From Candidatus Velamenicoccus archaeovorus (lineage in GTDB: Bacteria; Omnitrophota; Gorgyraeia; Velamenicoccales; Velamenicoccaceae), in contig NZ_CP019384.1 in the NCBI RefSeq assembly GCF_004102945.1, positions 510,001 through 542,000 of the forward strand: a DNA stretch of 32,000 nucleotides, given 5' to 3'. A program made the position numbers and the translations under genes. The first letter of the stretch is position 1, and each line of letters begins with the position of its first letter. This document shows, piece by piece, positions 668-27,431 of this stretch. The notes below the pieces were generated by a model, which had not been told where the DNA came from, did not search any database, and saw only the letters and a list, made by a program, of their open reading frames with translations.

Positions 668-786
668 TGGTTTAGGGCGATAGCCGGAGGCGCTTAAAGG
701 CGTCCCAAAAACAGGAAGGAGGTATTATTTTATTTTGTATTTGTTCAATTGATTACGCATGGTACTTCAAGATAGCGGGAAGTCTA

Positions 787-805
787 ATCCCGTCAAAGGC
801 GGGAT
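787..805 (+). promoter_or_regulatory. SD-proximal hairpin in the amtB leader, homologous to the leader hairpins at 7235-7259 and 26122-26144
   Basis: atcccgtc-aaa-ggcgggat gives an 8-bp stem including one G-T pair and a 3-nt loop. It is followed by ggaaagg and ATG 818. The flanking sequence tcaagata...gggaagtctaat aligns with tcaagataca...tggagttaat of element A2. Confidence 0.5.
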
Positions 806-817
806 GGAAAGGTCCAT

Positions 818-6743: not shown

Positions 6744-6857
6744 GGGCATAAGTATTCATCTCTTGCTCAAACGTCCGCCACTGGTTCTTCGGCGCCTGCC
6801 TGCCGGTAGGCAGGGACGCCCGCCGATGCAGTGGTGGCGGGGGCTTGTAAATTTTCC

Positions 6858-6898
6858 CAAGGTTCGGCCGATAGGGCCAGGTGCAGAAAAATACCTTG
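6858..6898 (+). repeat. Partial leader-element copy (A0) containing the ccgatagggccaggtg motif
   Basis: caaggt (6858-6863) pairs with accttg (6893-6898) around tcggccgatagggccaggtgcagaaaaat. The sequence resembles the 3' part of A1 (7010-7050). Confidence 0.4.
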
Positions 6899-6917
6899 AT
6901 AGAGACAAACATATATT

Positions 6918-7057
6918 GACTCCTCGCGTAAACATCTTGTCAATATCTGTCTGCGACCAGTCCTCGCAGAGCTCAGGCGGGTTCCGCAGGAAGCGGAATA
7001 CTGGTCTTTCCGATAGGGCCAGGTGCATCCAGATATTTCCAAGATACGCAAGGAGTT
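6918..7057 (+). repeat. Rod-like hairpin element A1 of the structured leader (long form with a two-hairpin insert)
   Basis: The 5' arm actcct/gcgta/tcttgtcaatatctgtctgc pairs with the 3' arm gcatccagatatttccaaga/tacgc/aggagt. Conserved apical sequence gaccagtcctcgcagagctcaggcgg (6955-6980). Insert at 6982-7024. Confidence 0.6.
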
Positions 7058-7070
7058 AACCCAGAAAGGG

Positions 7071-7121
7071 TAGACCTCCGCATTCCACATAACGGAGGGT
7101 CTAATTCCGCCAGAGGCGGAA
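7071..7121 (+). repeat. Two inter-element hairpins of leader A
   Basis: tagacctccg (7071-7080) pairs with cggagggtcta (7093-7103). ttccgcc-aga-ggcggaa (7105-7121) forms a 7-bp stem. Confidence 0.55.
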
Positions 7122-7140
7122 GATTAAAGGAAAGTAACGT

Positions 7141-7236
7141 GACTCCCCGTGTAAGCATCTTGACAATTTATGTCTGCGACCAGCCTTCGCAGAGCTCAGG
7201 CGGGCAGCCATAAATTCTCAAGATACACGTGGAGTT
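7141..7236 (+). repeat. Rod-like hairpin element A2 of the structured leader (short form)
   Basis: 7142-7153 pairs with 7224-7235 (11/12), then a bulge agca, then 7158-7177 pairs with 7204-7223 (18/20). 26-nt apical sequence gaccagccttcgcagagctcaggcgg (7178-7203). Confidence 0.65.
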
Positions 7237-7265
7237 AATTCCGCCAGAGGCGGAATTAAGGAGGG
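7235..7265 (+). promoter_or_regulatory. SD-abutting hairpin plus ribosome-binding site of the first hydrogenase-operon gene
   Basis: ttaattccgcc-aga-ggcggaattaa is a perfect 11-bp stem (7235-7259). SD ggagg (7260-7264) is directly 3' of it, and GTG is at 7272. Confidence 0.6.
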
Positions 7266-7271
7266 TTTAGC

Positions 7272-7631
7272 GTGACAACGCCACTGGATATGATCAAAAA
7301 GAAAAGGGCCGAGGCGATCAACCGCATCCTCGGCAAGGGATATTTGTCGACGAAACGCGTCTATGTCGGCATGGCGACATGCGAGATCGCGGCGGGATCC
7401 AAAGATGTAATGGCGGTCTTTGAGAATGCCATCAAGAATGAAGGATTGACCGACGTGTATCTGAGTCAGAAGGGCTGCGCCGGTCGTTGTAACCTGGAGC
7501 CGACCGTCGAAGTTGTGGAGGAAGGTAAGATCCCTGTCAAATACGGCAAGGTAACCAGAGAAATGGCGCGCCAGATCATCGACCAGCATTTGAAAAAAGG
7601 CGAAGTGATCAAGGAGTGGATTATTCATTGA
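7272..7631 (+). CDS. Thioredoxin-like [2Fe-2S] ferredoxin-domain protein (HndB-like small hydrogenase subunit)
   Basis: 119 aa. VYVGMATCEIAAGS...KGCAGRCNLEPTVEV resembles the small Trx-like Fd subunit found in NAD(P)-linked [FeFe]-hydrogenase operons. Only 3 Cys (C37, C69, C73). Confidence 0.7.
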   Translation: MTTPLDMIKKKRAEAINRILGKGYLSTKRVYVGMATCEIAAGSKDVMAVFENAIKNEGLTDVYLSQKGCAGRCNLEPTVEVVEEGKIPVKYGKVTREMARQIIDQHLKKGEVIKEWIIH

Positions 7632-7656
7632 AAAGACACTGGGATACAAGAAAATT

Positions 7657-7785
7657 ACCAATGTCCAATTACCCATGAAATCCCAATTCTCAAATATCCA
7701 ATTTGTTCCTTGGTTATTTGTTTTTTGATTGGTCATTGGTTATTGGAAATTTAACGGGTGATTGGTGACATGGTGACTTGGTGAC
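7657..7785. repeat. AT-rich imperfect palindrome with 4 CCAAT and 4 ATTGG pentamers and 3 TGGTGAC direct repeats
   Basis: CCAAT at 7658, 7665, 7683 and 7698. ATTGG at 7728, 7735, 7742 and 7761. TGGTGAC at 7763, 7771 and 7779. The arms are roughly 70 percent complementary by eye. Confidence 0.5.
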
Positions 7786-7811
7786 AACAATCAGCAGGAA
7801 GGGACGAAGAG

Positions 7812-15033: not shown

Positions 15034-15288
15034 ATGAAGAAGTCGATCGTCGTCATCCATATGCACCGGCGGCGTACCGCTGCGGCCAGGGTCCAGAAGG
15101 CCTTGACGGACTACGGCTGTATCATCAAGACCCGCTTGGGCATCCATGACGGTGTGTTGGACAAGTGCTCGGATGAAGGATTGATTCTGCTTGAGGTTGT
15201 CGGGGCTCCGGGCGAAACCCGGGCCCTGGAGAAGGCGCTCAAGGCCTGCCCCGGCGTCAAAACCAAGACCGTCGCCATCCCCCTCTGA
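15034..15288 (+). CDS. Putative iron-only hydrogenase system regulator (TM1266-like ACT-fold protein)
   Basis: 84 aa. The pattern of hydrophobic strands and GV.VKTV near the C-terminus, plus its position between hydE and hydF, matches the small hyd-linked TM1266 family as I recall it. Confidence 0.65.
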   Translation: MKKSIVVIHMHRRRTAAARVQKALTDYGCIIKTRLGIHDGVLDKCSDEGLILLEVVGAPGETRALEKALKACPGVKTKTVAIPL

Positions 15289-15322
15289 TAAGTGCCTGCA
15301 CGGAATTTTCAGCATTGAGACT

Positions 15323-16579
15323 ATGCAAAAGACACCCAAATCCCTTAGGCTGCACATCGGGTTGTTCGGCAGGACCAATGTCGGCAAGTCGAGCTTTTTG
15401 AATTATGTCGTCGGCCAGGATGTCGCGATCACGTCGCACATCCCCGGCACGACGACCGACGTGGTTGAAAAACCCATGGAATTGCTGCCGCTCGGCCCTG
15501 TCGTTTTCCTCGATACGGCCGGGCTCGACGATGCTTCCGAGCTCGGCGCCTTGAGGATCGAACGCACCAAAAAGGTTTTCGACCGGTGCGACGTATTGGT
15601 GCTGTTGACGGAACCCGAGGCGTGGGGAGGATATGAAGATGAGGTTTTGGCAGAGGCCCGGAAACGCCGGATCCCCGTCGTCATCGTCGTCAACAAGGCC
15701 GATACCCGCGTTCCTTCGGCTGATTTTATGGAGTCGTTGCGCCGGCGTTCTTCCCGCGTTTTGTCCTGCAGTTGTCTCGACCGTCAGGGGCGGGATCCTT
15801 TTGTCCATTCCTTCAAAGCGCAGCTGATCGAGATATGCCCCGAAGAATTTCTTCATCCGCCGGCGCTGGTCGGTGACCTCCTGGCGCAAGACAAGCTTTG
15901 CGTGTTCATCGTCCCTATCGACAAGGAGGCGCCGAAGGGGCGTCTGATCCTTCCCCAAGTCCAGGCGATCCGCGATGTGCTCGATGGCGGCAGAGGCGTT
16001 GTCGTCGTCAGGGAAAGCGAATATGCGTCATGCCTCAAAAATTTGAGGACGCCGCCGTCTTTGGTCGTCTGCGATTCCCAGGTGGTGGCCAGGATGGTTG
16101 AAGAGACGCCTCCGGAAATCCCATGCACGACTTTTTCCATCCTGTTCTCGCGCAGCAAGGGCGATCTGGACGAGGCGGTCAGGGGCGCCGGGGTTCTCGA
16201 TCAGATCCAAGAGGGTGACAAGATCCTGATTGCGGAGGCCTGTTCTCACCATGCGATCCAGGATGATATCGGCCGCGTCAAGATCCCGCGGTGGTTGTCT
16301 CAATTCAAAGGGTTCGATGTCCCTGTCGAGGTCTGCGCCGGCAAGGATTTTCCTGAAAACCTGAAAGGTTTCCGTCTTGTGATCCATTGCGGGGCCTGCA
16401 TGTTCACGAGGCGCGAGATGCTGGCCCGGATCGAGAGGGCCAGAGAGCAGGGGGTCGCCTTGACCAATTACGGCGTCGCCATCGCGTATCTGCAGGGAGT
16501 CCTGTCGCGCGTCCTGAGTCCGTTTCCGTCGGCGCTGTTGGTCTATCAAGAGACAGCCGGCACGCCTCAGCAGCATTAA
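15323..16579 (+). CDS. hydF: [FeFe]-hydrogenase maturase GTPase/scaffold HydF
   Basis: 418 aa from ATG 15323; the upstream part of ORF 15191 overlaps the preceding gene. P-loop GRTNVGKSS, DTAG, NKAD, and C-terminal CSHH...HCGAC cluster ligands. Confidence 0.9.
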   Translation: MQKTPKSLRLHIGLFGRTNVGKSSFLNYVVGQDVAITSHIPGTTTDVVEKPMELLPLGPVVFLDTAGLDDASELGALRIERTKKVFDRCDVLVLLTEPEAWGGYEDEVLAEARKRRIPVVIVVNKADTRVPSADFMESLRRRSSRVLSCSCLDRQGRDPFVHSFKAQLIEICPEEFLHPPALVGDLLAQDKLCVFIVPIDKEAPKGRLILPQVQAIRDVLDGGRGVVVVRESEYASCLKNLRTPPSLVVCDSQVVARMVEETPPEIPCTTFSILFSRSKGDLDEAVRGAGVLDQIQEGDKILIAEACSHHAIQDDIGRVKIPRWLSQFKGFDVPVEVCAGKDFPENLKGFRLVIHCGACMFTRREMLARIERAREQGVALTNYGVAIAYLQGVLSRVLSPFPSALLVYQETAGTPQQH

Positions 16580-16713
16580 CTTCCAGCCCCGATTTTTCTT
16601 TTTAGGTTTTTTTCGTGCAAGGCCCCGCTAGAGTAATTTCCCACGCCTGATAATTTCAAACTATCTTCCGCTACGACGCTGCATTGTGCGTCCATCACCC
16701 TCACAGAAAAACC

Positions 16714-16742
16714 TTGACGAAATAATTATAGTATGCTATATT
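16714..16742 (+). promoter_or_regulatory. Sigma70-type promoter of the tetR-efflux operon with overlapping short palindromes
   Basis: TTGACG (16714-16719), 17-nt spacer, TATATT (16737-16742). ATAATTAT and TATAG-N4-CTATA palindromes in the spacer/-10 region are candidate TetR operators. Confidence 0.4.
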
Positions 16743-16777
16743 TTTGATGTATGCTTCAAATATTGAAGGAGGCCGGC

Positions 16778-17452
16778 ATGGTCCATAAGGAATATTCATT
16801 GCGCGAACGAAAGCATGCCAAAACGAAGATCGCCATCATGAATGCTTTCATCAAGCGCCTGGAGAAGACGCGTTTCGACGATATCTCCGTCCGCCAGATC
16901 TGCGAGGATGTCGATGTTTCCGAAGGCACCTTCTTCAACTATTTTCCGGAAAAGATCGACATCATCAACTATTATATGCACCTGGAGTTTCTTCAGGTTA
17001 TCTGGAAGGCCCGTAAAGACGTGCCGGAAGGCGCGTATGTGGCCTTGATCGATGCCGTTCTTGAAAACCTGGGAAAGGAATTATTGCGTTATGACAATAT
17101 CATTTATCAGTTGATAGCCCTGATGATCATCCAGCAGCAGAGGCCCAAGAATCTGTCCATATCCAACCTTGAAAGGCAGACTTTTCTGCCGGATTGCGAA
17201 GGTATAGAGGATATAAAACTGATGCTGCCGGACGATTTCTTCAGCGAGTGCCTCAAAGAGGCCGTCCGTCATGGCGAGCTCTCCAAAGACATTAAAATCG
17301 ACGATTTGCAGGTATCGTTAATGACAATTTTGAGCGGTACGTTATTGGCGGCTAAATTCGCCGCCAATAAGGATATTGTTTATCATTTCAGGCGTCAATT
17401 GCGGTTTCTCTGGAAGGGTTTGGGGATAAAGAGAGCGGCGAGGAGAAGATGA
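16778..17452 (+). CDS. TetR/AcrR family transcriptional regulator
   Basis: N-terminal HTH (KTKIAIMNAFIKRLEKTRFDDISVRQICEDVDVSEGTFFNYFPEK). ATG 16778 has SD aaggagg. Confidence 0.85.
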   Translation: MVHKEYSLRERKHAKTKIAIMNAFIKRLEKTRFDDISVRQICEDVDVSEGTFFNYFPEKIDIINYYMHLEFLQVIWKARKDVPEGAYVALIDAVLENLGKELLRYDNIIYQLIALMIIQQQRPKNLSISNLERQTFLPDCEGIEDIKLMLPDDFFSECLKEAVRHGELSKDIKIDDLQVSLMTILSGTLLAAKFAANKDIVYHFRRQLRFLWKGLGIKRAARRR

Positions 17453-18798
17453 GAAGACGTTTGATCTTTGCAGCCAGTCGGGTCATTATCGCGGCTCTTA
17501 CCTTAAATATGGCCATGGCGGTTGGTTATGCCGCGGAGTGCCCCGTTGTTTTAGAGATAGGTCTTGACGAGGCCATCGGAAGGGCCCTGGATACCAGCGA
17601 AGAATTGAAGATCAAGGATAAAGAGGTTGATAAAAGCGAGGGGGCCTACCGGGAGGAGCGCGCAGAGATGCTGCCGCATTTTACCGCCAAGTCGCAATGG
17701 ACGCGTAACCTGTCTTATCCGGACAGCGCGGCCGCCGAGATAGCCGATTACGAGTCCGAAAACACTATCAACGCTTCGCAGGTCCTCTGGTCATTCGGCA
17801 GGGTCCTGTATGCGGTGAACGCCGCCAAAAAAGCGGTGGAGGCGACCAGATTCAACAGGGATGCCACCAGAGAGGAGATCGTCTATACCGCCAAGTTGAG
17901 CTATTACAGCTGTCTTTTGGCCAAGAATACCTTGTCCATCACCGAGAAGTCGTACGCGAATGCCCTCGAGAACAAGGATCTGTTGGGCCAGCGTTCCTAT
18001 GGCGGCCGCAGCTCCAGGTATGAGATCCTTAGGATGAATACGGATGTGGCTTCGCGCGTTCCTGCGGTCAACGAGGCCAGGACAGAGTTCGACGCGGCCG
18101 TAGAGACTTTGAAGAGGCTTATTGATGTGAGTCATGAATGCAGTATTTCCTTGCTTGGGGATTTTAAGGATAAATATGAATCTTACGATTACGAGGCGCT
18201 CGTTTTCGTCATGGCTGAAAGAGAACCGTATCTCAAGAGCTTGGATAAGACCATTGAATCGGCCGATGCAAAGGTCAAGAGCAAATTCGCCGCCCTATTC
18301 CCGACCGTATCCGCCTTTTCCTCATGGGGTTATGCCGGGGGCGGCAACGAACATTCATTCCCGTCCGGCGGCGACCTGGATAATTATTCCCTCGTGGGCT
18401 TTAAGATCGATATCCCGATCTGGGAAGGCGGGCTCAAGCAGGCACAGTTGAGCCAATCGAGGGCCACCAAGGATATCGCGGTCTTGAGAAAACAGCAGGT
18501 GTGGAGGAACTACATGCTGGAACTCAAGAAAGCCTTTTTGGAATATGAACAGTATAAGGACAATCTCAAGGCCAATATCGAAGCGGTGGACCTGGCGCAA
18601 GAGTCGTTCAAGCAGACGCAGGAGATGTTCGCGTCTGGCCAGGTAACTCTGACCGACCTGAACGACGCCGAGCTTCTGTTGACCAACCAGAGGCTGAATA
18701 AAGAAATGACGTTGTTCAACATCAATGTGACGCTGGCCAGGATAGAAAAGTTGATCGCGGAGAAAGCCAATGAAATGTCCGTCGTTAAAAAATCTTAA
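17449..18798 (+). CDS. TolC-family outer membrane efflux protein
   Basis: 449 aa with a signal-like N-terminus and two repeated OEP-type halves. 4-nt overlap with tetR. Confidence 0.8.
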   Translation: MRRRLIFAASRVIIAALTLNMAMAVGYAAECPVVLEIGLDEAIGRALDTSEELKIKDKEVDKSEGAYREERAEMLPHFTAKSQWTRNLSYPDSAAAEIADYESENTINASQVLWSFGRVLYAVNAAKKAVEATRFNRDATREEIVYTAKLSYYSCLLAKNTLSITEKSYANALENKDLLGQRSYGGRSSRYEILRMNTDVASRVPAVNEARTEFDAAVETLKRLIDVSHECSISLLGDFKDKYESYDYEALVFVMAEREPYLKSLDKTIESADAKVKSKFAALFPTVSAFSSWGYAGGGNEHSFPSGGDLDNYSLVGFKIDIPIWEGGLKQAQLSQSRATKDIAVLRKQQVWRNYMLELKKAFLEYEQYKDNLKANIEAVDLAQESFKQTQEMFASGQVTLTDLNDAELLLTNQRLNKEMTLFNINVTLARIEKLIAEKANEMSVVKKS

Positions 18799-19489
18799 TC
18801 CCAGGGCAAAGGTATACGCGGCCATGCTTTTGTTTGGCGTCATCGCCGTGTTTATCAGGATCGTCCTTGTGCAGCTTGACCGCGGCCGTCAGATCGTCAG
18901 CTTTGTTTCCGAGTGGGAGCGATACGGCAGGCCGGTCCTTGTCAAAGAAATGATGGCGGTTGATGTTCCTGTGTATACGAAATTCACCGTCATCATCGGC
19001 CAGGATGGTTCGGCCAGAGGTTTTGTCACGGGAGACATCAAGGACAAGCTTGCACAAGGCCAGGCGGTCTACCCGAACGCCAATAGCGGGATCCCTTGCG
19101 GCGCGATCTCAGAGATCGGTCAGGAGCTTGATATGGAGACGGGGATGTTCCCGGTCACGGTGGGTTTTAGCAATTTTTCAGGCGCGTCCGGCTCCAGGCT
19201 GGTGCTTTTTGCGCAAACACAAACTTTGAAAGCCGCATTGGTCGTGCCCAATGATATCGTTGATATTTCTAAAGATGGTTCTTTTTTGTGGAAGGTCGAG
19301 GACGGCAAGGCCAGGAAGATCCATGTCAAGATCGGTTCCCGTAACGGCTATGGGACCCTTATCGCCGAAGGCATCGGGTCCGGCGATTTGGTCGTGCTCA
19401 GGGGTCAGGATTCGTTAAGCCAGAACGATAAGGTGAAGATCGTGGGCCGGCAGGCCGGTCCCGCGCGCAGGACAGGAATGGGGCTATAA
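18770..19489 (+). CDS. Efflux RND periplasmic adaptor (membrane-fusion protein), unusually short
   Basis: 239 aa. N-terminal TM anchor and beta-rich lipoyl/barrel-like segments (FVTGDIKDKLAQGQAVY, GDLVVLRGQDSLSQNDKVKIV) with no long coiled-coil segment. The start may be further downstream. Confidence 0.65.
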   Translation: MKCPSLKNLNPRAKVYAAMLLFGVIAVFIRIVLVQLDRGRQIVSFVSEWERYGRPVLVKEMMAVDVPVYTKFTVIIGQDGSARGFVTGDIKDKLAQGQAVYPNANSGIPCGAISEIGQELDMETGMFPVTVGFSNFSGASGSRLVLFAQTQTLKAALVVPNDIVDISKDGSFLWKVEDGKARKIHVKIGSRNGYGTLIAEGIGSGDLVVLRGQDSLSQNDKVKIVGRQAGPARRTGMGL

Positions 19490-19493
19490 AACA

Positions 19494-22400
19494 ATGATCG
19501 CTTATTTTGTCAGACATCGGATCACCACCATCATGTTCGTTCTGGTGTTTGTGGTCCTCGGTGTATACAGTTATGCCAACCTGCCTATCGAGAAGACGCC
19601 GAAGATGGACTTTCCTATTGTGACGGTTTCGGTGACGTATCCGGGCGCAACCCCCTTAGAGGTCGAAACTCTGGTTGTCAAAAAGATCGAAGACGTGGTT
19701 GCCGAGATCTCCGAGATCAAGAAGATCAAAAGCCAGGCCTATGAAAGTCTGGCTTTTATTTCTATTGAGTTCTTGATCGAGGCAGACGTCAATGTCAAGT
19801 CCATCGAGGTCAAGGACAAGGTGGATGCGATCTTGAACGACCTGCCCGATTCAATCGAAAAACCCATCATCGAGAAATACGATCCCTTGATCGTACCGGT
19901 TATGGAATTGGTGCTTTCCAGTGATACGCTGGACGGCCGGGATCTCTATGAATACGCCGACAAGACCCTGAAGACCAAGATTTCTTCTATTGCGGGGGTC
20001 GCCAAGGTCGATGTCTATGGCGGCAAGAAGAGGCAGGTCAACGTCTGGCTCGACCCCATGCTGATGAAACAGCATTACATCAGTATCGGCGAGGTGGTCA
20101 ATGCGATGCTCTTGAAGAATATGAATATCCCTGCCGGCGCCTTGGAGAAGGGTTTTAATTCGCTCGGGGCCAGGTTTACCGGGGAATTCGAGAGCATCGA
20201 TGAGATAGCACGGATGAAGCTGGTTTCTTCCGACGGATCCAGCTGCCTCCTGAAAGATATCGCGACGATAGAAGACAGCTATAAGAAGATTGATTCCATG
20301 GCGCGGTATAACGGCAGAGAAGTCGTAGGCCTTTCCATCAATAAATCTTCCGACGGCAACGCGGTATCCATCGCCCGGGATCTGCGGCGCAGACTGGATG
20401 CGTTCAGGGCGATCCTGCCTCGCGGTGTCAACCTTGATGTAGCGACGGACACGACGACGTTTATCGTCGATGAGACCCATGCGACGATTTGGAATATTTT
20501 TATTGGTCTTTTGCTGACAGCCGCCATCCTTTATTTTTTTATAGGCAGGTGGGATATTGCTTTTATCGCCTGCATCATTATCCCCACTTCCATTATCTCG
20601 ACCCTGTTTCCTATGTGGATGTCGAAGTTTTCGATCAACATGCTGACCTTGTTGGCCATCGCTTCGGTGCTCGGGACATTGATCTCGAATGCCATCGTCA
20701 TCATTGAGAACGTATTGGTGCATCTTGAACGTTCTGATGACCCTGAGAAGGCCGCTATCGAGGGGACCCAGGAAGTTTTTGTCCCTATTATCGCGGCTAC
20801 CGGCACCAATCTCGTCGTTTTTATGCCGTTGTCCCTGATGAGCGGGATCGTTGGCGTGTTCATGAAGTCTTTCGGCTTAACGGTTGTCTACGCCACATTA
20901 TTTTCATTGCTGGCTTCTTTTGCTCTGACCCCTATGCTGTGCGCCGCGCTCCTGCAGCCCAAAAAAGGCGAGAAAAGGGGCACCGGAAAACCAAATGTTA
21001 TCTTGGAGGCATTATTCGCTCCATTGCATTGGATACGTCAAGGCATTGATGCCGGCATGGAATTCTTGAAAAAGGAATATAGACATATCTTTGATCTCAT
21101 CTTTCGATATCCCAAGGCGACCATTATTTCCGTTGTCCTGCTGTTTTTTGGGTCATTGATGCTGGTGCCGTATCTCGAGAGCGATTTTTCGCCGAAGTCC
21201 GATGAGGACCAGTTCGTCATCAATATGGTTTTGCCGCAAGGCTCTACGATTGAACGCACCCTGGAAGCCTGCAGGCTGGTAGAGGGGTATATTGAAAAGA
21301 TCCCGGAGAAGAAATCGTATCTGACCAACATCGGAGAGAATGGGGTCGAGAACGCCAAGATCACGCTGGATCTTGTGTCTTTAAAAGACAGGAAGAGAGC
21401 GGACACGGAGATCATGGATGAGCTTACCAAATTCATCGCTGCGATCCCCGATGTCGAGGTGAGTTATGACCGGGGTATGTCTGCCGAATCCGGCACCGGA
21501 GATGTGGCCATAGACCTCTATGGTATTGATTACGATACGATGATCGGGCTTTCCCAGCAGATGAAGGGCTTGATGGAGCAGAGCGGCTATTTCAAGAGCG
21601 TTATTTTGTCTTACAAATTCCCCGGCGATGAAGTCCGTCTCAAGCCCCTGCAGGAAAAAATCGCAGAGTATGGGCTCACGGCCGCAACCGTAGGGACAAG
21701 CTTCCGGTCGTCGGTATATGGAGAAGATACGAATACGTATAAGGAAAAGGGCGAAGAATACAAGATCAATATTGAGTTGAACGACGCCTACGCGCAGGAG
21801 GCCGATGACATCAAGGTCATATCCGTGCTTTCGCGTAAAGGGCTTATCCCTTTGGATGAGCTCGGCACGCTCGTGATCGACAAGACCGTTCCTATGATCC
21901 GTCATCGCGACAGGGTGAGGGTTATCCACCTGGACGGTTTCCTGGGCAAAAGCTCGATGGGCGTGGTCAGCGGCGTCCTCGACAAGCGGTTCAAGGCCAT
22001 GCAATTCCATGAAGGCTATGGTTATCGTTATGTGGGGAATGCTGAACACATGGACGAAGCGACCCGTGAACTTGGCAAGGCGTTTGTGCTCGGGGTCATC
22101 CTGACGTTCATGCTGCTTTGCGCTCTTATGAATTCGTTGATCGCCTATCCTTTGGCCATCATGACGACGGTCGCGACCTCGTTGATCGGGATCATCCTGG
22201 GTTTGTTTTTCCTGGGTCTATCCATCAATATCGCATCGATGATGGGCATCGTTATGCTCGTGGGTATGGTGGTCAATAACGCGATATTGATGCTGGATTA
22301 TACCCTGATCAAGATGAGGGAGGGCGTGCCGGTCAAGGAAGCGCTGTGGATCGGGGCTACCGAGAAATTCCGGGCGATCATGATGACATCCATCGCGATC

Positions 22401-22565
22401 ATCCTGGGTGTCTTGCCGCAGCTCTGGTCGGTCATGGAAGCCAAGAGGGCCATGGGCGGCGTCATGACCGGCGGCATGCTTGCTTCGATCGTGTTCACTT
22501 TTATTCTTGTTCCCGTTGTCTTCTGGTATCTGGTCCGTTTCGAAAAAAGATTTGTCAAACATTGA
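19494..22565 (+). CDS. RND efflux transporter permease (AcrB/HAE family)
   Basis: 1023 aa with 12-TM RND topology and two large periplasmic loops. Confidence 0.92.
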   Translation: MIAYFVRHRITTIMFVLVFVVLGVYSYANLPIEKTPKMDFPIVTVSVTYPGATPLEVETLVVKKIEDVVAEISEIKKIKSQAYESLAFISIEFLIEADVNVKSIEVKDKVDAILNDLPDSIEKPIIEKYDPLIVPVMELVLSSDTLDGRDLYEYADKTLKTKISSIAGVAKVDVYGGKKRQVNVWLDPMLMKQHYISIGEVVNAMLLKNMNIPAGALEKGFNSLGARFTGEFESIDEIARMKLVSSDGSSCLLKDIATIEDSYKKIDSMARYNGREVVGLSINKSSDGNAVSIARDLRRRLDAFRAILPRGVNLDVATDTTTFIVDETHATIWNIFIGLLLTAAILYFFIGRWDIAFIACIIIPTSIISTLFPMWMSKFSINMLTLLAIASVLGTLISNAIVIIENVLVHLERSDDPEKAAIEGTQEVFVPIIAATGTNLVVFMPLSLMSGIVGVFMKSFGLTVVYATLFSLLASFALTPMLCAALLQPKKGEKRGTGKPNVILEALFAPLHWIRQGIDAGMEFLKKEYRHIFDLIFRYPKATIISVVLLFFGSLMLVPYLESDFSPKSDEDQFVINMVLPQGSTIERTLEACRLVEGYIEKIPEKKSYLTNIGENGVENAKITLDLVSLKDRKRADTEIMDELTKFIAAIPDVEVSYDRGMSAESGTGDVAIDLYGIDYDTMIGLSQQMKGLMEQSGYFKSVILSYKFPGDEVRLKPLQEKIAEYGLTAATVGTSFRSSVYGEDTNTYKEKGEEYKINIELNDAYAQEADDIKVISVLSRKGLIPLDELGTLVIDKTVPMIRHRDRVRVIHLDGFLGKSSMGVVSGVLDKRFKAMQFHEGYGYRYVGNAEHMDEATRELGKAFVLGVILTFMLLCALMNSLIAYPLAIMTTVATSLIGIILGLFFLGLSINIASMMGIVMLVGMVVNNAILMLDYTLIKMREGVPVKEALWIGATEKFRAIMMTSIAIILGVLPQLWSVMEAKRAMGGVMTGGMLASIVFTFILVPVVFWYLVRFEKRFVKH

Positions 22566-22598
22566 TCTTGCGATAGGCCACGTCCGTACGTCCAAACA

Positions 22599-23165
22599 AT
22601 GAAAGAACTGGATATTCTGTTTTTGTTGACAAGGTTTATAGATAAGAACGGGTCTGTTTTTGCCCACGGCCGGCGCGTTGCCGGGATTGCCTGCGCCATG
22701 GCCAAAAAGATGGGGTATTGCGACGAAGGGATCAGGCATATTCATTGTGCCGCCGTTGTTCATGATATCGGGAAGATCAATGTCCCGCAAGAAATTGTCA
22801 ATAAACCTGGTTGTCTCAGCGACCATGAGATCGCGATTATCAGGAAACATCCCGAACTGGGATTTTGTCTTTTGAAAGACACGAAGCCGGAGTCTATTGT
22901 TGCGGAGGTTGCCCTTCAGCATCACGAGAGGATGGATGGTTCAGGGTATCCTTTCGGGCTGTGCGCCCGGGACATCCATCCTGTTGCAAGGATTGTTGCC
23001 GTTGCCGATGTGATTGATGCGATGACTTCTTTGCAGGCGTATAGGCCGGCCCTAAATATGCACGATGCCCTCGGAGAACTCATGCGGAACCGCGGATCGC
23101 TATACGATGCCGGAGTCGTCGATGCCAGCGTATCGCTTTTTGAGCGGGGAGAGTATCATGTCTGA
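22599..23165 (+). CDS. HD-GYP domain protein (putative cyclic-di-GMP phosphodiesterase), no sensor domain
   Basis: 188 aa, H...HDIGK...HHERMDGSGYPFG. Confidence 0.85.
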   Translation: MKELDILFLLTRFIDKNGSVFAHGRRVAGIACAMAKKMGYCDEGIRHIHCAAVVHDIGKINVPQEIVNKPGCLSDHEIAIIRKHPELGFCLLKDTKPESIVAEVALQHHERMDGSGYPFGLCARDIHPVARIVAVADVIDAMTSLQAYRPALNMHDALGELMRNRGSLYDAGVVDASVSLFERGEYHV

Positions 23166-23595
23166 GGTGCCCTATGATGTGAGGCTTTCCGAATTATTGC
23201 AGAGGGTTATGCGGGATTTCCGTGTCCAAGCCTACCGCTATTCACTGTCCCAAAAACTTCCTTTATCAGAGTGCCGGGTGTTGTTTCTGTTGTGTAGCGG
23301 CTTGCCGGTTAAAATGAACAAAATAAAACAGGATTTGTTTGTTTCCGGGGCATGTGTCACAAGCATCGCCGACCGGCTTATCAGAAAAAAACTCATCATA
23401 CGCCGCCGCAGCGATACAGACCGCAGGAAGGTAAGTCTCGTACTTACGGATAAAGGAAGGAGTTGCTTGGTGCGATTGGAAGCGCGCCGGAAGGGTTTGC
23501 TGAAAGCGATATTCGGGAACTTAACAGAAAGAGATAAAAAAACAATAGAGGACGGCGTTTCCATTCTTGCCGTGTCTTTGGAGTCCGTAAAATGA
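23158..23595 (+). CDS. MarR family transcriptional regulator
   Basis: 145 aa from ATG 23158 (ATGTCTGA overlap with the HD-GYP stop). Winged-helix region LFVSGACVTSIADRLIRKKLIIRRRSDTDRRKVSLVLTDKG. Confidence 0.8.
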   Translation: MSEVPYDVRLSELLQRVMRDFRVQAYRYSLSQKLPLSECRVLFLLCSGLPVKMNKIKQDLFVSGACVTSIADRLIRKKLIIRRRSDTDRRKVSLVLTDKGRSCLVRLEARRKGLLKAIFGNLTERDKKTIEDGVSILAVSLESVK

Positions 23596-23651
23596 ATCTG
23601 ATCCATAAGGCGTTACAGGTGACGCTATGGTGCTGATGAAAAAATAAATTT

Positions 23652-24320
23652 ATGAAAAGTTATTTATGGCGGGCATTGGTGAGCAACAAGTACTACCATT
23701 TATTGGCTGTGCTTGTTGTTTTCTTTTTTATCGTGCCGTTCGGGACGGGTGGCCCGATGCAGCATTTCGTCTTTCCGCTGATGTTTTTGTCCGGCATCCT
23801 TTTTTCTTTAAGGGCACTGGAAGTCAAAAGGGCGGAATTTCTCCTTATGGCCTTGACCGGCGTATCGGCATTGGCCATCGGCATTTTGTTTGAGTTCTTC
23901 CATGCTCCCGCGGCAGGAGGCAGGATCCTGCTTGAAATACCCATCGTGATCTACGCGTTTTTCTTATTGATGTCCATAGCGCTTCTGATCTCCAAGATGT
24001 TCGCTGTCTCAAAAGTGACCAGCGATACGATCGCCGGAGGCATCAGCGTCTATTTGCTTCTGGGGTTCCTGTGGACGGTGTTTTATTATGCCGTGTATAT
24101 TTACGACCCCTGCGCTTTTAATTTTCCTTCGCCGGCCCATCAATACAGTTTGTTCTATTTCAGCTTTTCGACGTTGACGACCGTGGGTTATGGGGATGTT
24201 TACCCGGTGAACAGGATGGCGATGTCCCTTTCCAACCTGGAGGCCATCACCGGCCAGATGTATGTCGCAATCTTCATTTCCAGGCTTGTGGGGTTGCATA
24301 TTGCAGCCCATAACAAATAG
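23652..24320 (+). CDS. Potassium channel family protein (ion transport 2 type)
   Basis: 222 aa, multi-TM, with the selectivity filter TTVGYGD. Confidence 0.8.
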   Translation: MKSYLWRALVSNKYYHLLAVLVVFFFIVPFGTGGPMQHFVFPLMFLSGILFSLRALEVKRAEFLLMALTGVSALAIGILFEFFHAPAAGGRILLEIPIVIYAFFLLMSIALLISKMFAVSKVTSDTIAGGISVYLLLGFLWTVFYYAVYIYDPCAFNFPSPAHQYSLFYFSFSTLTTVGYGDVYPVNRMAMSLSNLEAITGQMYVAIFISRLVGLHIAAHNK

Positions 24321-24327
24321 GCAAAAG

Positions 24328-25509
24328 ATGTCGAAAAAAATCTGCTGGTTGGTCATTTTGATTTTATCCGTGTCTGGTTGCGCCGCGGCGCGGCATGCGG
24401 TCCCGTCGGGCCTGACAGGGGACGTAACGGTTTCGGGTCTGCGGGATATCCGGGCGGTCAGCGGCGCCCGGAGTGAGTCTTTTACGAAAGATTTTATCGG
24501 GCTATTGGAGCAGGCGGAAAAGAACAGCCCGTCTTTTTTTGATTTCAGGGGCGGCCGGACGTATACGTTGCTTGCGATCTCCGGCGGCGCGGCATACGGC
24601 GCTTACGGCGCCGGCCTCCTGAACGGCTGGACGCAAGAAGGGTCAAGGCCGGTTTTTCAGATCGTGACGGGGATCAGCGTCGGGGCCATTATCGCCCCGT
24701 TTGCCTTTTTAGGCAGCGCCTACGACCGCCAGCTCCAGGAGCTTTGCACGAATTATGCGACAAAGGACATCATGCACGTCCGTCTGTCCCATGATTCTTT
24801 TGCGAGTTCACGGCCGCTGGAACGCTTGCTTGAGAAATACTTCGACGAGAGATTCCTGAAGGAAGTCGCCGCCGCCTACGCTCAGGGCCGCAGGCTGTAC
24901 GTCGGGACGACCGATCTGGATGCGCAGCGGCTTATTATCTGGGATATGGGGAAGATCGCCTCTGTAGGAGACGAGAGGGCGTTGCGTTTATTTAGAAAGA
25001 TCATTCTGGCGTCGGCATCGATCCCTCTGGCATTTCCGCCGGTTTTCATGCAGGTGGAGGCCGGCAACAAGACATACGATGAGATGCATGTCGACGGAGG
25101 GGTCATCAAGCAGGTCTTTTTCCTTCACGATATCGCCCTCGGTCTGGAGCAGGCCGTCCGCCAAAAAGGCCTGGATATGTCGAGGTTGAAATACAGGATT
25201 TACGTCATCAGGAATGGCTATGTCGATCCTGTCTGGAAGGAAATCCCCGACAGTCTTGTCGATATTGCAGAACGTGCCGTCGATACGCTGATCAACGCCC
25301 AGGGCATCGGGGACATCTATCAATTGTACACCTTCACAAGGTTACGCGGAGGCGATTTCAATCTTGCCTATATCCCCGGTGACCATCTTTCGGCGGCTAA
25401 AGAGCCTTTTGACCCCGTGGAGATGCGGAAACTTTTTGACCTTGGTTTTGAAGAGGCGGCCGCCGGCTATCCCTGGAAAAAGGTCCCGCCGGGCCTGGAG
25501 AAAAAATAG
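24328..25509 (+). CDS. Patatin-like phospholipase lipoprotein
   Basis: Lipobox LSVSGC after MSKKICWLVILI. Patatin motifs SGGAAYGAYG, GISVG and HVDGG. ATG 24328 is preferred over ORF-track start 24262. Confidence 0.85.
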   Translation: MSKKICWLVILILSVSGCAAARHAVPSGLTGDVTVSGLRDIRAVSGARSESFTKDFIGLLEQAEKNSPSFFDFRGGRTYTLLAISGGAAYGAYGAGLLNGWTQEGSRPVFQIVTGISVGAIIAPFAFLGSAYDRQLQELCTNYATKDIMHVRLSHDSFASSRPLERLLEKYFDERFLKEVAAAYAQGRRLYVGTTDLDAQRLIIWDMGKIASVGDERALRLFRKIILASASIPLAFPPVFMQVEAGNKTYDEMHVDGGVIKQVFFLHDIALGLEQAVRQKGLDMSRLKYRIYVIRNGYVDPVWKEIPDSLVDIAERAVDTLINAQGIGDIYQLYTFTRLRGGDFNLAYIPGDHLSAAKEPFDPVEMRKLFDLGFEEAAAGYPWKKVPPGLEKK

Positions 25510-25582: not shown

Positions 25583-25607
25583 GCGCTTCAAAAGAAGCGC
25601 TTTTTTT
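25583..25607 (+). terminator. Rho-independent terminator after the patatin gene
   Basis: gcgcttc-aaaa-gaagcgc followed by TTTTTTT. Confidence 0.7.
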
Positions 25608-25627
25608 ATTTCTTTTTTAGGGATATT

Positions 25628-25636: not shown

Positions 25637-25826
25637 ATAGAAGATTTTTTTGAGAACGGAAGGACGAGGAGCGTGCCTCGCGTCAACCCGCCTTGAGAGT
25701 GATATATCTTGTTTTTATCAAATGAGTTGCAAATATGATGTAATATTTTTTTATCCCGGCGTAAGGTTTCATCTTTGCGGGGTGAAACATTTGTTTGGAA
25801 TTTAAGAAGAATTAAGGAATTAACGT

Positions 25827-25965
25827 TACTCCTCGTGTAAGCATCTTGACAATTTATGCCTGCGACCAGCCTTCGCAGAGCTCAGGCGGGCAGTCATAAA
25901 TTCTCAAGATACACTGCCGCAGAAAGCGGCACACCGGCCATCCGATAAGGCCGGGTGAAGGAGTT
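25827..25965 (+). repeat. Rod-like hairpin element B1 of the structured leader (with the two-hairpin insert on the 3' side)
   Basis: 4 substitutions versus A2 over 89 nt. 25845-25863 pairs with 25890-25908. The apical 26-mer (25864-25889) is identical to A2. Insert at 25915-25956. Confidence 0.65.
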
Positions 25966-25978
25966 AACCCAGAAAGGG

Positions 25979-26033
25979 TAGGCCTCCGCAATACCAAATA
26001 AGCGGAGGGCCTAATCTCGTCAGAGGCGGAAGA
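25979..26033 (+). repeat. Inter-element hairpins of leader B
   Basis: taggcctccgc (25979-25989) pairs with gcggagggccta (26002-26013). A degenerate copy of the ttccgcc hairpin follows (26015-26033). Confidence 0.5.
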
Positions 26034-26043
26034 CATTAAGAAA

Positions 26044-26122
26044 GACCCCTTGCCTAAGCGCTTGTCCGTTTCACTCACAAGCACCAGAGGTGTTCGTGAA
26101 ATGGACTTGCGCAGGCAGGGGT
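26044..26122 (+). repeat. Rod-like hairpin element B2 (divergent sequence, same architecture)
   Basis: acccct(t)gc (26045-26053) pairs with gcaggggt (26115-26122). gcct/gcgc pairs with gcgc/aggc. cttgtccgtttcac (26061-26074) pairs with gtgaaatggacttg (26096-26109). Apical hairpin with an AGAG loop. Confidence 0.55.
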
Positions 26123-26150
26123 AATTCCGCCGGAGGCGGAATTAAGGAGG
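26122..26150 (+). promoter_or_regulatory. SD-abutting hairpin plus ribosome-binding site of trxA
   Basis: taattccgcc-gga-ggcggaatta (26122-26144), then AAGGAGG (26144-26150) and ATG 26155. Confidence 0.6.
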
Positions 26151-26154
26151 CCCC

Positions 26155-26478
26155 ATGGGAGCAATTCATTTGAGCGATGAGAATTTTAAGAAGGAGGTCT
26201 TGGAATCCAAGATTCCATGCCTGGTCGATTTCTGGGCCGAATGGTGCGGGCCTTGTCGTCGGGTCGCGCCGGTCGTTGAAGAGATAGCGGATGAATTTCA
26301 GGGGCGGTTTAAGGTCGCAAAGCTTAATGTGGACGAAGGGTCCAAGACGGCATCGGCTTACGGCGTCATGTCCATCCCGACATTGATGTTTTTCAAGGAT
26401 GGGAAGGTCGTCGAGCAGGTCGTCGGGGCCGTCGCCAAGCAGGAACTTGTGGCCAAAATAGAGGAGTTGTTGGGCTAA
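26155..26478 (+). CDS. trxA: Thioredoxin
   Basis: 107 aa with the active site WAEWCGPCR. Confidence 0.95.
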
Positions 26479-27431
26479 TGGATGCTATAGCGTTGATCAG
26501 AGAAAAGGCGAAGAAACAATCAAAGACGATTGTTTTGCCGGAAGGGCACGATCCCCGCGTCAGGAAAGCGGCGGAGTTTATTCAACAGGAAGGTATTGCC
26601 AAGGTTATTTTGCTGGAGAAGGGGAAGCTCGATCCTAAAAAGATCGAAGAATACACGGAATTATATTATCAGCTTCGTCAGCACAAAGGGATCGCCAGGG
26701 AAGAGGCCCAGCAGACGGTCTTGAATCCTGTTTTTTACGGAGCGATGCTGGTCCGTCAAGGCTTGGCGGACGGTTTTGTCGCCGGAGCGGACACAACGAC
26801 ATCAGATGTCGCCAAGGCAGGCCTGTATTGCCTAGGCGTGGACCGCAGGATCGCGACGATCTCGAGCTGTTTTATCATGACGGTTCCGGATTGTCCTTAC
26901 GGCGAAGGGGGAACGTTCCTTTTTGCCGATTGCGGCATCATTCCCGATCCGACGACGCGGCAGTTGGCGCAGATCGCGCTGTCGACGGCAGACCTGGGAC
27001 GCAAGGTCCTGGGGATCACGCCGAAGGTGGCGATGCTGAGTTATTCCACCAAAGGGTCGGCGAGCGGGCGTTTTATCGAGAGGATCCGGGAAGCCACGGC
27101 CATGCTGCACGAGATGGCGCCCGACCTTGCGGTTGACGGAGAGCTGCAGGTGGACGCGGCCATCGTGCCTGATGTTGCCAGACATAAAAATCCCGGAAGC
27201 CCGATCCAGGGGGACGCCAATATCCTTTTGTTCCCGAACCTGGAGGCGGGCAATATCGCTTACAAGCTCGTCGAGCGCCTGTCCAAAGGCCGTGCCCTTG
27301 GGCCGCTCTTGATGGGATTGGTTAAACCTTGCAGCGATCTGTCGCGCGGCTGCAGCTGGGAAGATGTTGCGGATTGCACGGCCGTTACGGCGATCCGCTG
27401 CCAGTATGAAGTTGAAGGCGAGGGCATATGA
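26478..27431 (+). CDS. pta: Phosphate acetyltransferase (short PTA_PTB type)
   Basis: 317 aa with PTA-family sequence (GADTTTSD, SYSTKGSA, NILLFPNLEAGNIAYK). TAATG overlap with trxA. Followed by ackA. Confidence 0.85.
   Translation: MDAIALIREKAKKQSKTIVLPEGHDPRVRKAAEFIQQEGIAKVILLEKGKLDPKKIEEYTELYYQLRQHKGIAREEAQQTVLNPVFYGAMLVRQGLADGFVAGADTTTSDVAKAGLYCLGVDRRIATISSCFIMTVPDCPYGEGGTFLFADCGIIPDPTTRQLAQIALSTADLGRKVLGITPKVAMLSYSTKGSASGRFIERIREATAMLHEMAPDLAVDGELQVDAAIVPDVARHKNPGSPIQGDANILLFPNLEAGNIAYKLVERLSKGRALGPLLMGLVKPCSDLSRGCSWEDVADCTAVTAIRCQYEVEGEGI

Follow-up and report, generated by a model that had tools for sequence, protein, structure and literature searches.

Organization of the trxA leader

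The window, a 32,000-nucleotide stretch of DNA from Candidatus Velamenicoccus archaeovorus, contains a leader (locus B, positions 25827 to 26154) immediately upstream of three genes whose products belong to the Thioredoxin, PTA_PTB, and Acetate_kinase families (trxA-pta-ackA); the third product is named "acetate kinase" by NCBI. Four proteins encoded in the window match this species (Omnitrophota; closed genome of 1.97 Mb) exactly. A sequence-only reading had described this leader as a string of hairpins arranged in the same order as a second leader (locus A, 6918 to 7271), which precedes hndB of the Hnd-type [FeFe] hydrogenase (hyd) operon. The features of the trxA upstream region, all on the forward (+) strand, are given below. 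SD stands for the Shine-Dalgarno sequence, LH for long hairpin, SH for small hairpin, and L followed by a number identifies a stretch of DNA used for comparison.

25583 to 25610 (+): intrinsic-terminator-like hairpin with T-run, after a patatin-like gene; kept in L077, L079, and L080
25626 to 25638 (+): promoter-like extended -10 TTTGTTATAATAT, shared by all trxA orthologs examined, whether or not they carry repeats
25810 to 25826 (+): left insertion flank, pseudo-SD and spacer AATTAAGGAATTAACGT, a direct repeat of the right-end ATTAAGGAG
25827 to 25914 (+): B1, an LH module, a long irregular hairpin (5' arm, apex, 3' arm); covariance model R1 scores 92.8 bits on + versus 26.3 on -
25915 to 25931 (+): SH1, small hairpin TGCCGC-AGAAA-GCGGCA
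25932 to 25957 (+): SH2, small hairpin whose stem varies and covaries below a conserved loop of the YCCGATA type
25958 to 26013 (+): LNK (mini-hairpin ACCC-AGAA-GGGT) and the MID hairpin TAGGCCTCCGC...GCGGAGGGCCTA (25979 to 26013)
26014 to 26032 (+): H6, degenerate copy of the TTCCGCC-NGA-GGCGGAA hairpin with two U·G pairs and one mismatch
26044 to 26122 (+): B2, second long-hairpin module (z = -6.8)
26122 to 26144 (+): H7, 10-bp SD-abutting hairpin TAATTCCGCC-GGA-GGCGGAATTA
26144 to 26157 (+): native SD AAGGAGG (26144 to 26150), CCCC spacer, and trxA ATG (26155)

A sequence check bore out the match in module order between the two loci. B1 and module A2 of locus A (7141 to 7228) were found to differ at four positions (7141/25827, 7147/25833, 7173/25859, and 7208/25894), the number first reported, over a length of 88 rather than 89 positions, which corresponds to approximately 95% identity. 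The apical 26-mer described as identical is part of a longer identical run of 34 nt (7174 to 7207, equal to 25860 to 25893). Linker AAGGAGTTAACCCAGAAAGGG at 25958 to 25978 is an exact copy of 7050 to 7070 (21 nt), the basal ACTCCT of B1 pairs with AGGAGT at 25959 to 25964, and the pseudo-SD spacer that follows H6 extends to 26043. In B1, SH1 and SH2 follow the hairpin on its 3' side, whereas in locus A the apex of the first LH, A1, encloses them; colinearity of the two loci is therefore one of module order and not an exact match.

The stem differences quoted for B2 were confirmed, its apical loop being AGA rather than AGAG. Descent of B2 from LH/A2 by divergence was rejected, as B2 belongs to its own eight-member family (detected by nhmmer) at unrelated genes. 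The LH covariance model recognized no more than a weak match in architecture (22 bits, E ~9e-4). The hairpins themselves are real: minimum free energy z-scores relative to shuffled sequences were -9.1 for locus B and -7.8 for locus A, and individual hairpins ranged from -3.6 to -6.8.

The terminator-like hairpin at 25583 to 25610 is predicted to mark the start of the trxA transcription unit. A consensus scan of the trxA upstream region returned no full -35/-10 promoter. Since the extended -10 is common to all trxA orthologs examined, the whole composite should be located inside the predicted 5' untranslated region (UTR), which would be about 510 nt in the window versus approximately 110 to 170 nt in module-free relatives. 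The upstream terminator and/or a TTGTTATAAT box were kept in all trxA orthologs compared, which likewise places the repeats within the 5' UTR. The trxA SD and spacer are the same as those at the module-free L077 site (TTTAAGG|TTAAGGAGGCCCCATG).

A dispersed family of leader modules

We consider it fairly probable (roughly 0.65) that locus B is one copy of a multicopy, lineage-restricted mosaic hairpin repeat family of Candidatus Velamenicoccus archaeovorus and its closest relatives. Seven or more short modules make up the family, namely the long hairpins LH and B2, the small hairpins SH1 and SH2, LNK-MID, H6/H7, a GC mini-hairpin, and a P module that resembles a promoter. They occur in variable order and number and fill the space from the promoter, or the upstream cistron, to the gene's own TTAAGGAGG ribosome-binding site.

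Scanning of approximately 0.4 Mb of related DNA with nhmmer and window-derived seeds yielded 74 module clusters, with 67 copies of LH, 65 of H7, 45 of LNK-MID, 27 of SH1/2, 14 of H6, and 8 of B2. None of the 74 clusters mixed strands, and all matched the orientation of the downstream gene where a gene was assignable. Downstream genes were assigned by a start-codon test after the cluster; most clusters stop 2 to 8 nt before the start codon. An LH covariance model (Infernal) detected about 65 copies, scoring up to 114 bits in the sense orientation versus about 40 bits in the antisense orientation, where the latter was scored too. The loops of H6/H7 were all NGA in gene sense. A search with the H7+AAGG pattern returned 49 metagenome stretches, and an open reading frame (ORF) started 10 to 16 nt past the T of TAAGG in 47 of the 51 matches; this places the start codon 2 to 8 nt past AGGAGG in a sample that is biased by the pattern. 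Independent cases of modules adjoining an SD are provided by the protein-anchored loci described below and by the leader of an ammonium-transporter (amt) ortholog in the L059 locus flank.

The same modules, arranged in the same preferred order and read in the sense of the gene that follows, are found ahead of genes from at least 30 unrelated families; the proposed shared control of two redox and energy operons is not supported. Downstream products include ribosomal proteins S13, S11, and L19, GroEL, ClpP, lysyl-tRNA synthetase (LysRS; lysS), KARI (ilvC), chorismate synthase (aroC), an ACP-like protein, LemA, HSP20, OmpA-like, DoxX, and PNPOx proteins, and others. The order of locus A (LH-SH-LNKMID-H6-LH-H7) was found again before rplS, whose leader is LH-LNKMID-H6-LH-H7, and before a small thioredoxin-like gene. 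LNKMID-B2-H7, the arrangement that makes up the 3' half of locus B, precedes three other genes as well. Colinearity of the two loci thus reflects a shared grammar and not a link between the operons.

This grammar is flexible. LNK-MID forms tandem arrays of up to four copies at other genes, LH apices or MID loops can enclose SH modules, and the short G+C-rich palindromes (H6/H7, SH1, SH2, and the GC mini-hairpin) are combined in mosaics. LH has terminal inverted arms of about 31 nt that pair end to end. The loops of SH2 and MID are conserved while their stems covary, and 56 of 83 H6/H7 copies match TAATTCCGCCRGAGGCGGAATTA exactly. Many copies are intercistronic (rpsM-rpsK, ilvN-ilvC), and leader lengths range from 30 to 520 nt. 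A further long-hairpin module family (…CTTGTAAATTTCCGCCAGGGTAGGCCGTCGGCCTGGCGCAGCCGGCCAGGACGGCC…GGAAATTTCC…) was observed in the same mosaics in L034, L040, and L073.

When an 18-mer from the LH apex was searched among species-representative genomes, true homologues, in five copies, were obtained in one other genome only. It is the metagenome-assembled genome (MAG) CAYYFL01 (L003, L014, L019, and L024), labeled "uncultured Planctomycetia bacterium." Its repeats, together with shared HSP20-, DoxX-, and DUF4900-type genes, suggest that CAYYFL01 is a relative of Velamenicoccus (Omnitrophota). In the Elusimicrobiota MAG JAYRXX01, a different intergenic repeat (L001 3211 to 3228, L007 2013 to 2030) contains a 22-mer, CCTTCGCAGAGCTCAGGCGGGC, identical to the LH apex; the remainder of that repeat is unalignable to LH and has no Rfam match. 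The 22-mer could be due to chance (rough estimate, 1 to 2%) or a shared short motif. H7 and LH-core patterns, used to look for a phage origin, had no matches in IMG/VR.

Gain and loss of modules at orthologous operons

Orthologs of trxA and hyd were retrieved by protein anchoring, which avoids the bias of the H7 pattern. Among the trxA orthologs, the leader of a V. archaeovorus MAG (96% TrxA identity) consists of B2-H7. In L079 to L081 (94%), a GC hairpin is nested in the LH, which is followed by SH1, SH2, and an H7' with compensatory changes (TCCCGTC/GACGGGA), and L066 has only LH, the mini-hairpin, and H7. Modules are absent in L077/L078 (94%), L075 (87%), and L076 (82%). The hyd orthologs in L030, L057, and L059 keep the proximal H6-LH-H7 and differ in their distal modules, whereas those in L075, L082 to L085, and L086 have module-free spacers of 1 to 76 nt. 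L082 and L083 are on the same contigs as L080 and L079, respectively; on these contigs (Ga0255811_11813742 and Ga0373411_0000404), trxA has a leader and the hyd site is empty. Modules are gained, lost, duplicated, and nested quickly between close relatives.

Empty sites read ...AAA|TTAAGGAGG; in filled sites, the basic [LH-TAA-H7] unit separates ...AAA from TTAAGGAGG and has an ATTAAGGAR direct repeat on its flanks. At trxA, the empty site of L077 reads ...CACTTTAAGG|TTAAGGAGGCCCCATG, with SD and spacer as in the window. At hyd, the empty site ...TATAGGCAAA|TTAAGGAGGAGTTTGTG compares with ...TATAGGCAAATTTAGGAAATCAACAT[LH...]GGCGGAATTAAGGAGG in a filled ortholog. Filled sites at both genes show ATTAAGGAR/TTAA flanks, and insertions of SH1/SH2 occur without consistent duplication. 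The left-flank consensus of 50 LH flanks is ATTAAGGAAAT(A/T)AACGT. Module ends are delimited by TAA (...GGAGT-TAA, ...GGGYC-TAA, ...GGGG-TAA, and ...GGAAT-TAA-GGAGG), and junctions are located at TAA/TTAA and in hairpin loops.

The sequence-only reading had proposed that the whole composite, not one mobile repeat, is conserved at the two operons, which suggested shared posttranscriptional control. In this view it would be a dedicated cis-regulatory leader (riboswitch-like or bound by a shared factor) coupling the hydrogenase operon and trxA-pta-ackA to H2 or redox conditions. Both leaders are indeed colinear and highly structured, both operons serve fermentative metabolism, and the operons are adjacent in a relative, in the order histidine kinase-hnd-hydEGF-trxA-pta-ack. 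However, the same modules in the same order precede genes for ribosomal proteins, chaperones, a tRNA synthetase, and amino acid biosynthesis, and the composites are not conserved at orthologous operons: some relatives lack the leader at hyd and pta-ack while copies reside elsewhere, and a single contig can have it at trxA and not at hyd. Rfam 15 gave no matches, either for the whole window at the gathering score or for both leaders at E ≤ 1. Such a dedicated leader is highly improbable. The description of the structures and of their compensatory differences holds, and the interpretation as operon-specific control does not.

The adjacency of the two operons was observed in L075 (Ga0265297_10000206), in which one uninterrupted run of genes comprises a histidine kinase gene, the hnd genes, hydE/G/F, trxA, pta, and ack. 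In the window, about 10 kb of additional genes (15191 to 25509; OEP/RND efflux, patatin-like, and others) separates hydF from trxA. Judged from gene order, the two leader-bearing operons were probably once neighbors.

The leader-free relatives L077 and L078 carry another insertion of approximately 370 nt, located between trxA and pta (L077 6325 to 6702; L078 5447 to 5824). Its ends are terminal inverted repeats of about 25 nt, GAGTCTCCGATAAATAGGTGGCA ... GTGCCTATTATTTATCGGAGGCTCAGG. It appears to be an unrelated element resembling a MITE (miniature inverted-repeat transposable element).

Promoter-like module and expression data

The P module follows the pattern TAATTTTG(C/T/A)AAGGAA-N9-ACCTCGNTATAGGCAAAATTAAGGAGG-N5-7-ATG before unrelated genes and is also found directly upstream of LH units, recurring at 13 sites. 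It is arranged as TTGYAA, 16 nt, and TATAGG, and its conservation over 45 nt extends well past a promoter consensus. A consensus scanner did not call it as a promoter; its layout suggests a promoter function. The LH module was also considered as a promoter and rejected: it contains a perfect TTGACA but no -10 at 16 to 18 nt, and other subfamilies have TTGTCA, TTGTTA, or CTGAAA at this place.

The published transcript values come from one metatranscriptome condition (PMC12583861). In Table S2 of PMC12583861, a coding sequence (CDS) called in leader A has 25.3 transcripts per million (TPM), hndB has 27.4, and the kinase gene upstream has 10.7. Leader A is thus transcribed at the level of the hyd gene, with TPM values rising across it. 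This CDS (LMHFDP_233150), from the Flye annotation of the LiM genome, has no NCBI counterpart. The relative intensity-based absolute quantification (riBAQ) values of TrxA and Pta (QAT16606 and QAT16607; window 26155 to 27431) were 411 to 632 and 492 to 551 ppm, respectively, in two of three fractions, and 157 and 163 in the third (PMC12583861 Table S2). Both are among the most abundant proteins of the approximately 110 neighboring genes listed, at ordinary TPM values of 25 and 38 (PMC12583861). The patatin-like gene upstream of trxA had a TPM of 21 and almost no protein (PMC12583861 Table S2).

Another reading is a global regulon cassette similar to Neisseria REP2/CREN, in which the succession of P module, leader, and SD would put dozens of genes under one trans-acting factor. 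The factor, a DNA- or RNA-binding protein, an RNase, or a small RNA, would recognize H7, the P module, or the LH apex and so coordinate expression, with prey attachment as one conceivable occasion. The near invariance of H6/H7, the conserved loops of SH2 and MID on covarying stems, which are typical of recognition loops, the extended conservation of the P module, and the precedent of REP2 (PMC3184786) speak for it. It should be noted, however, that the invariance of H7 is largely forced by the search pattern, and that copies in L079 to L081 and the amt remnant of the window (see below) vary with compensation. Moreover, the genes concerned share no functional theme, the cassette is readily lost from orthologs, the leader-bearing genes of the window have ordinary TPM values, and a candidate factor was not identified. 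We regard a regulon of this type as unlikely.

Probable selection on sense-strand RNA folding

Differences between copies had been described as compensatory, and alignments of the modules agree with this. Across 20 LH copies, 98.2% of cells were paired, and 9 of 33 pairs (48 cells) were changed on both sides. LH covariation was 0.214, compared with 0.102 in shuffles (0 of 500 reached the observed value) and 0.02 to 0.04 for slid partners. Eight of 15 pairs covary in SH1/SH2 (0 of 500 shuffles); compensatory changes in the MID and H7 stems were identified by inspection only. Approximately 11 cells in LH stems were G·U versus 1 to 2 A·C. This excess, combined with the invariant polarity of the modules, favors selection on folding of the sense-strand RNA.

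The hypothesis that H7 keeps the SD single stranded was tested by partition-function folding of 43 leaders and was not supported. Scrambling the 5' arm of H7 changed the predicted probability of an unpaired SD from 0.53 (native leaders) to 0.60, a shift opposite to the one expected (Wilcoxon P ~9e-4); the scored bases included two A's of the stem. The probability thus remains near 0.5 with no rise from H7. Mutually exclusive helices were not identified.

An alternative explanation is that the modules are selfish or neutral DNA without a role in RNA. A MITE- or REP-like machinery would target the asymmetric TTAAGGAGG or the adjoining TTAA, the gene-sense orientation and closeness to the SD would follow secondarily from the choice of targets and the purging of harmful insertions, and the hairpins would be read by a transposase in single-stranded DNA. 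Several observations are consistent with this explanation: near relatives differ in the presence and copy number of modules, filled sites have direct repeats, junctions lie at TAA/TTAA, LH has MITE-like inverted arms of 31 nt, and contigs often end inside leaders. The same applies to the relatives whose trxA and hyd function leaderless and to the negative result of the SD exposure test. On the other hand, classical MITEs and REPs occur both ways, whereas every cluster here keeps to one strand, and an ORF on that strand follows in most cases, one possible divergent pair 300 nt apart in L071 among them. That pair, the one possible counter-example to an orientation set by replication direction, is too little to decide. 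In addition, stem G·U cells are far more common than A·C, diverged populations retain the proximal LH-H7 unit at the same genes but vary in their distal modules, and about 0.46 Mb of DNA, in which no systematic search was made, showed no transposase or autonomous parent. Selfish DNA alone is the less likely account, though a serious one.

The best reading is a fast-turning-over mosaic repeat family that builds leader cassettes from the promoter to the SD. We infer a generic role of these cassettes at the RNA level. They would act on whichever mRNA carries them, through stabilization or processing of the long helices at 5' ends or between cistrons, and would give a constant context in front of a perfect SD rather than serve as a ligand- or redox-specific switch. 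They may spread via SD-proximal targeted insertion or ectopic recombination.

Several points weigh against this reading. The H7+AAGG search pattern biases the SD adjacency, the constancy of H7, and part of the orientation result; only the protein-anchored orthologs and the secondary clusters in flanks are independent of it. Counts rest on the window and about 0.4 Mb of related DNA, not on the whole CP019384 genome. A clean target-site duplication was not seen for every module, and no transposase was seen within the limits of the survey given above. Some modules are located upstream of a P module and may lie outside the mRNA of the downstream gene. Covariation and G·T tolerance could also result from single-stranded DNA hairpins formed during transposition, and the SD exposure attributed to H7 was not borne out by the folding predictions.

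In a more far-reaching version, the family would be a self-propagating expression cassette that homes one-way to TTAAGGAGG and remodels 5' UTRs into a genome-wide posttranscriptional regulon, which one RNA-binding factor or RNase would read via H7 and the LH apex. If this version, which we view as quite unlikely, were true, the 5' UTRs of a substantial share of genes would have been remodeled in a 2-Mb predatory ultramicrobacterium, including those of ribosomal-protein, chaperone, and core metabolic genes.

Comparison with known repeat systems

The family is best called one of dispersed mosaic repeats that fail a defining feature of each known type (occurrence in both orientations, 3' location, or a single fixed unit). 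Its nearest functional analogues are Neisseria REP2 (CREN) and the IR-A/IR-B repeats of Borrelia plasmids, and its nearest relatives in organization are BIME and BOX (PMC3184786). Like the modules described here, REP2 and the Borrelia repeats are dispersed directly 5' of many ORFs and form 5'-UTR stem-loops with a ribosome-binding site near the start codon (PMC3184786). REP2 carries a promoter, and the Velamenicoccus mosaic has the promoter-like P module TTTTGYAAGGAA..ACCTCGNTATAGGCAAAATTAAGGAGG. However, REP2 is a single unit of 120 to 150 bp in about 26 copies, includes the ATG, and has no terminal inverted repeats. In Velamenicoccus, at least seven interchangeable modules are nested or in tandem, the inverted arms of LH measure 31 nt, and each gene appears to supply its own SD.

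BIME/REP elements (RIME, NIME) are likewise extragenic, high-copy mosaics of short palindromes that are cotranscribed and can affect mRNA stability (PMC3184786). Most REPs are found downstream (3') of a gene or in the space between two convergent genes, and successive units of a BIME alternate in orientation, whereas the units of each Velamenicoccus cluster share one strand, read in the sense of the downstream gene, lie 5' of its start codon, and abut the SD. The BOX element of Streptococcus pneumoniae (boxA-boxB(n)-boxC) is modular with a variable number of internal modules, transcribed, and predicted to form stable hairpins; it is often near gene 5' ends and can modulate expression (PMC3184786). 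Its A-B(n)-C grammar is fixed, it occurs in either orientation, and it is not locked to an SD, whereas Velamenicoccus modules are more numerous and insert into each other's loops.

ERIC (Yersinia/enterobacteria) and Correia (Neisseria) elements are cotranscribed MITEs that resemble LH in size (about 100 to 150 bp), long inverted arms, and RNA hairpin formation; strains differ in which insertions they carry, and promoters can be part of Correia elements (PMC3184786). They occur in both orientations at varied distances from genes and with TA duplications, whereas LH is strictly in gene sense, paired with H7 at the SD, and flanked by TTAA/ATTAAGGAR. ERIC and Correia elements exert effects through RNase E or RNase III. 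Mycobacterial MIRUs are orientation-locked repeats of 40 to 100 bp in operon spacers, placed relative to stop and start codons. They are thought to act via small overlapping ORFs (translational coupling) and are not hairpin mosaics. None of the REP, BIME, BOX, ERIC, Correia, and REP2 elements is described as combining strict polarity, an SD-locked position, loop nesting, strong covariation, and a module resembling a promoter. The Velamenicoccus/Omnitrophota literature searched, which did not extend to the original genome paper (PMC9004380), contained no description of the family, which is unusual and apparently undescribed.

If the pattern is genome-wide, a reduced genome of 1.97 Mb provides long, structured, and fast-changing leaders to many housekeeping genes. 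The family is a natural system for studying how repeats become parts of 5' UTRs and whether an element can target a ribosome-binding sequence. In practice, the repeats break metagenome assemblies of the lineage, yield spurious ORF calls in leaders, and can be mistaken for operon-specific riboswitches, as happened with the first reading of this window.

Many metagenome and MAG contigs start or end within leaders (L074, 1 to 105; L027, 81; L037, 128; L063, 1221; L003, 127), and the repeats appear to fragment assemblies of the Velamenicoccus lineage.

Locus A and other features of the window

The features at locus A and at a third site, all on the + strand, are as follows.

6775 to 6917 (+): upstream part of locus A, with a GC-rich hairpin including the CCTGCC..GGCAGG mini-hairpin module (6794 to 6816)
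6865 to 6885 (+): partial SH2, upstream part of locus A
6893 to 6909 (+): degenerate promoter-like P module ACCTTGATAGAGACAAA before A1
6918 to 7056 (+): A1, an LH module with SH1 (6982 to 6998) and SH2 (7001 to 7022) nested in its apex
7050 to 7140 (+): LNK-MID (7050 to 7103), H6 (7104 to 7122), and pseudo-SD spacer ATTAAAGGAAAGTAACGT
7141 to 7274 (+): A2 LH (7141 to 7235; LH covariance model, 112.9 bits), H7 (7236 to 7258), SD AAGGAGG (7258 to 7264), and hndB GTG (7272)
780 to 820 (+): degenerate leader remnant before the ammonium-transporter gene, with a MID 3'-like part, H7-like AATCCCGTC-AAA-GGCGGGAT, GGAAAGG, and ATG

The GC mini-hairpin module CCTGCCTGCCGGCAGGCAGG, present in the window at 6794 to 6816 upstream of A1, occurs in the same mosaics elsewhere. 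A leader peptide in A2 (a 28-codon upstream ORF with GTG at 7139 and an SD-like AAGGAAA upstream) was rejected, as most copies have GTT or ACG at this position. Between hndB and the NuoF-like gene, the window has an AT-rich spacer of 180 nt (7632 to 7811) with the short direct repeats GGTGAC(A/T)TGGTGAC and TTGGTTATT; the gap in relatives is 15 nt only (L082, 3360 to 3376). The LH model matched this spacer weakly at 7667 to 7744 (12 bits, E 0.6).

The ammonium-transporter ortholog in L059 has a clear LNKMID-H7 leader (16 to 96). By comparison, the degenerate sequence at 780 to 820 looks like a decaying third leader of the window.

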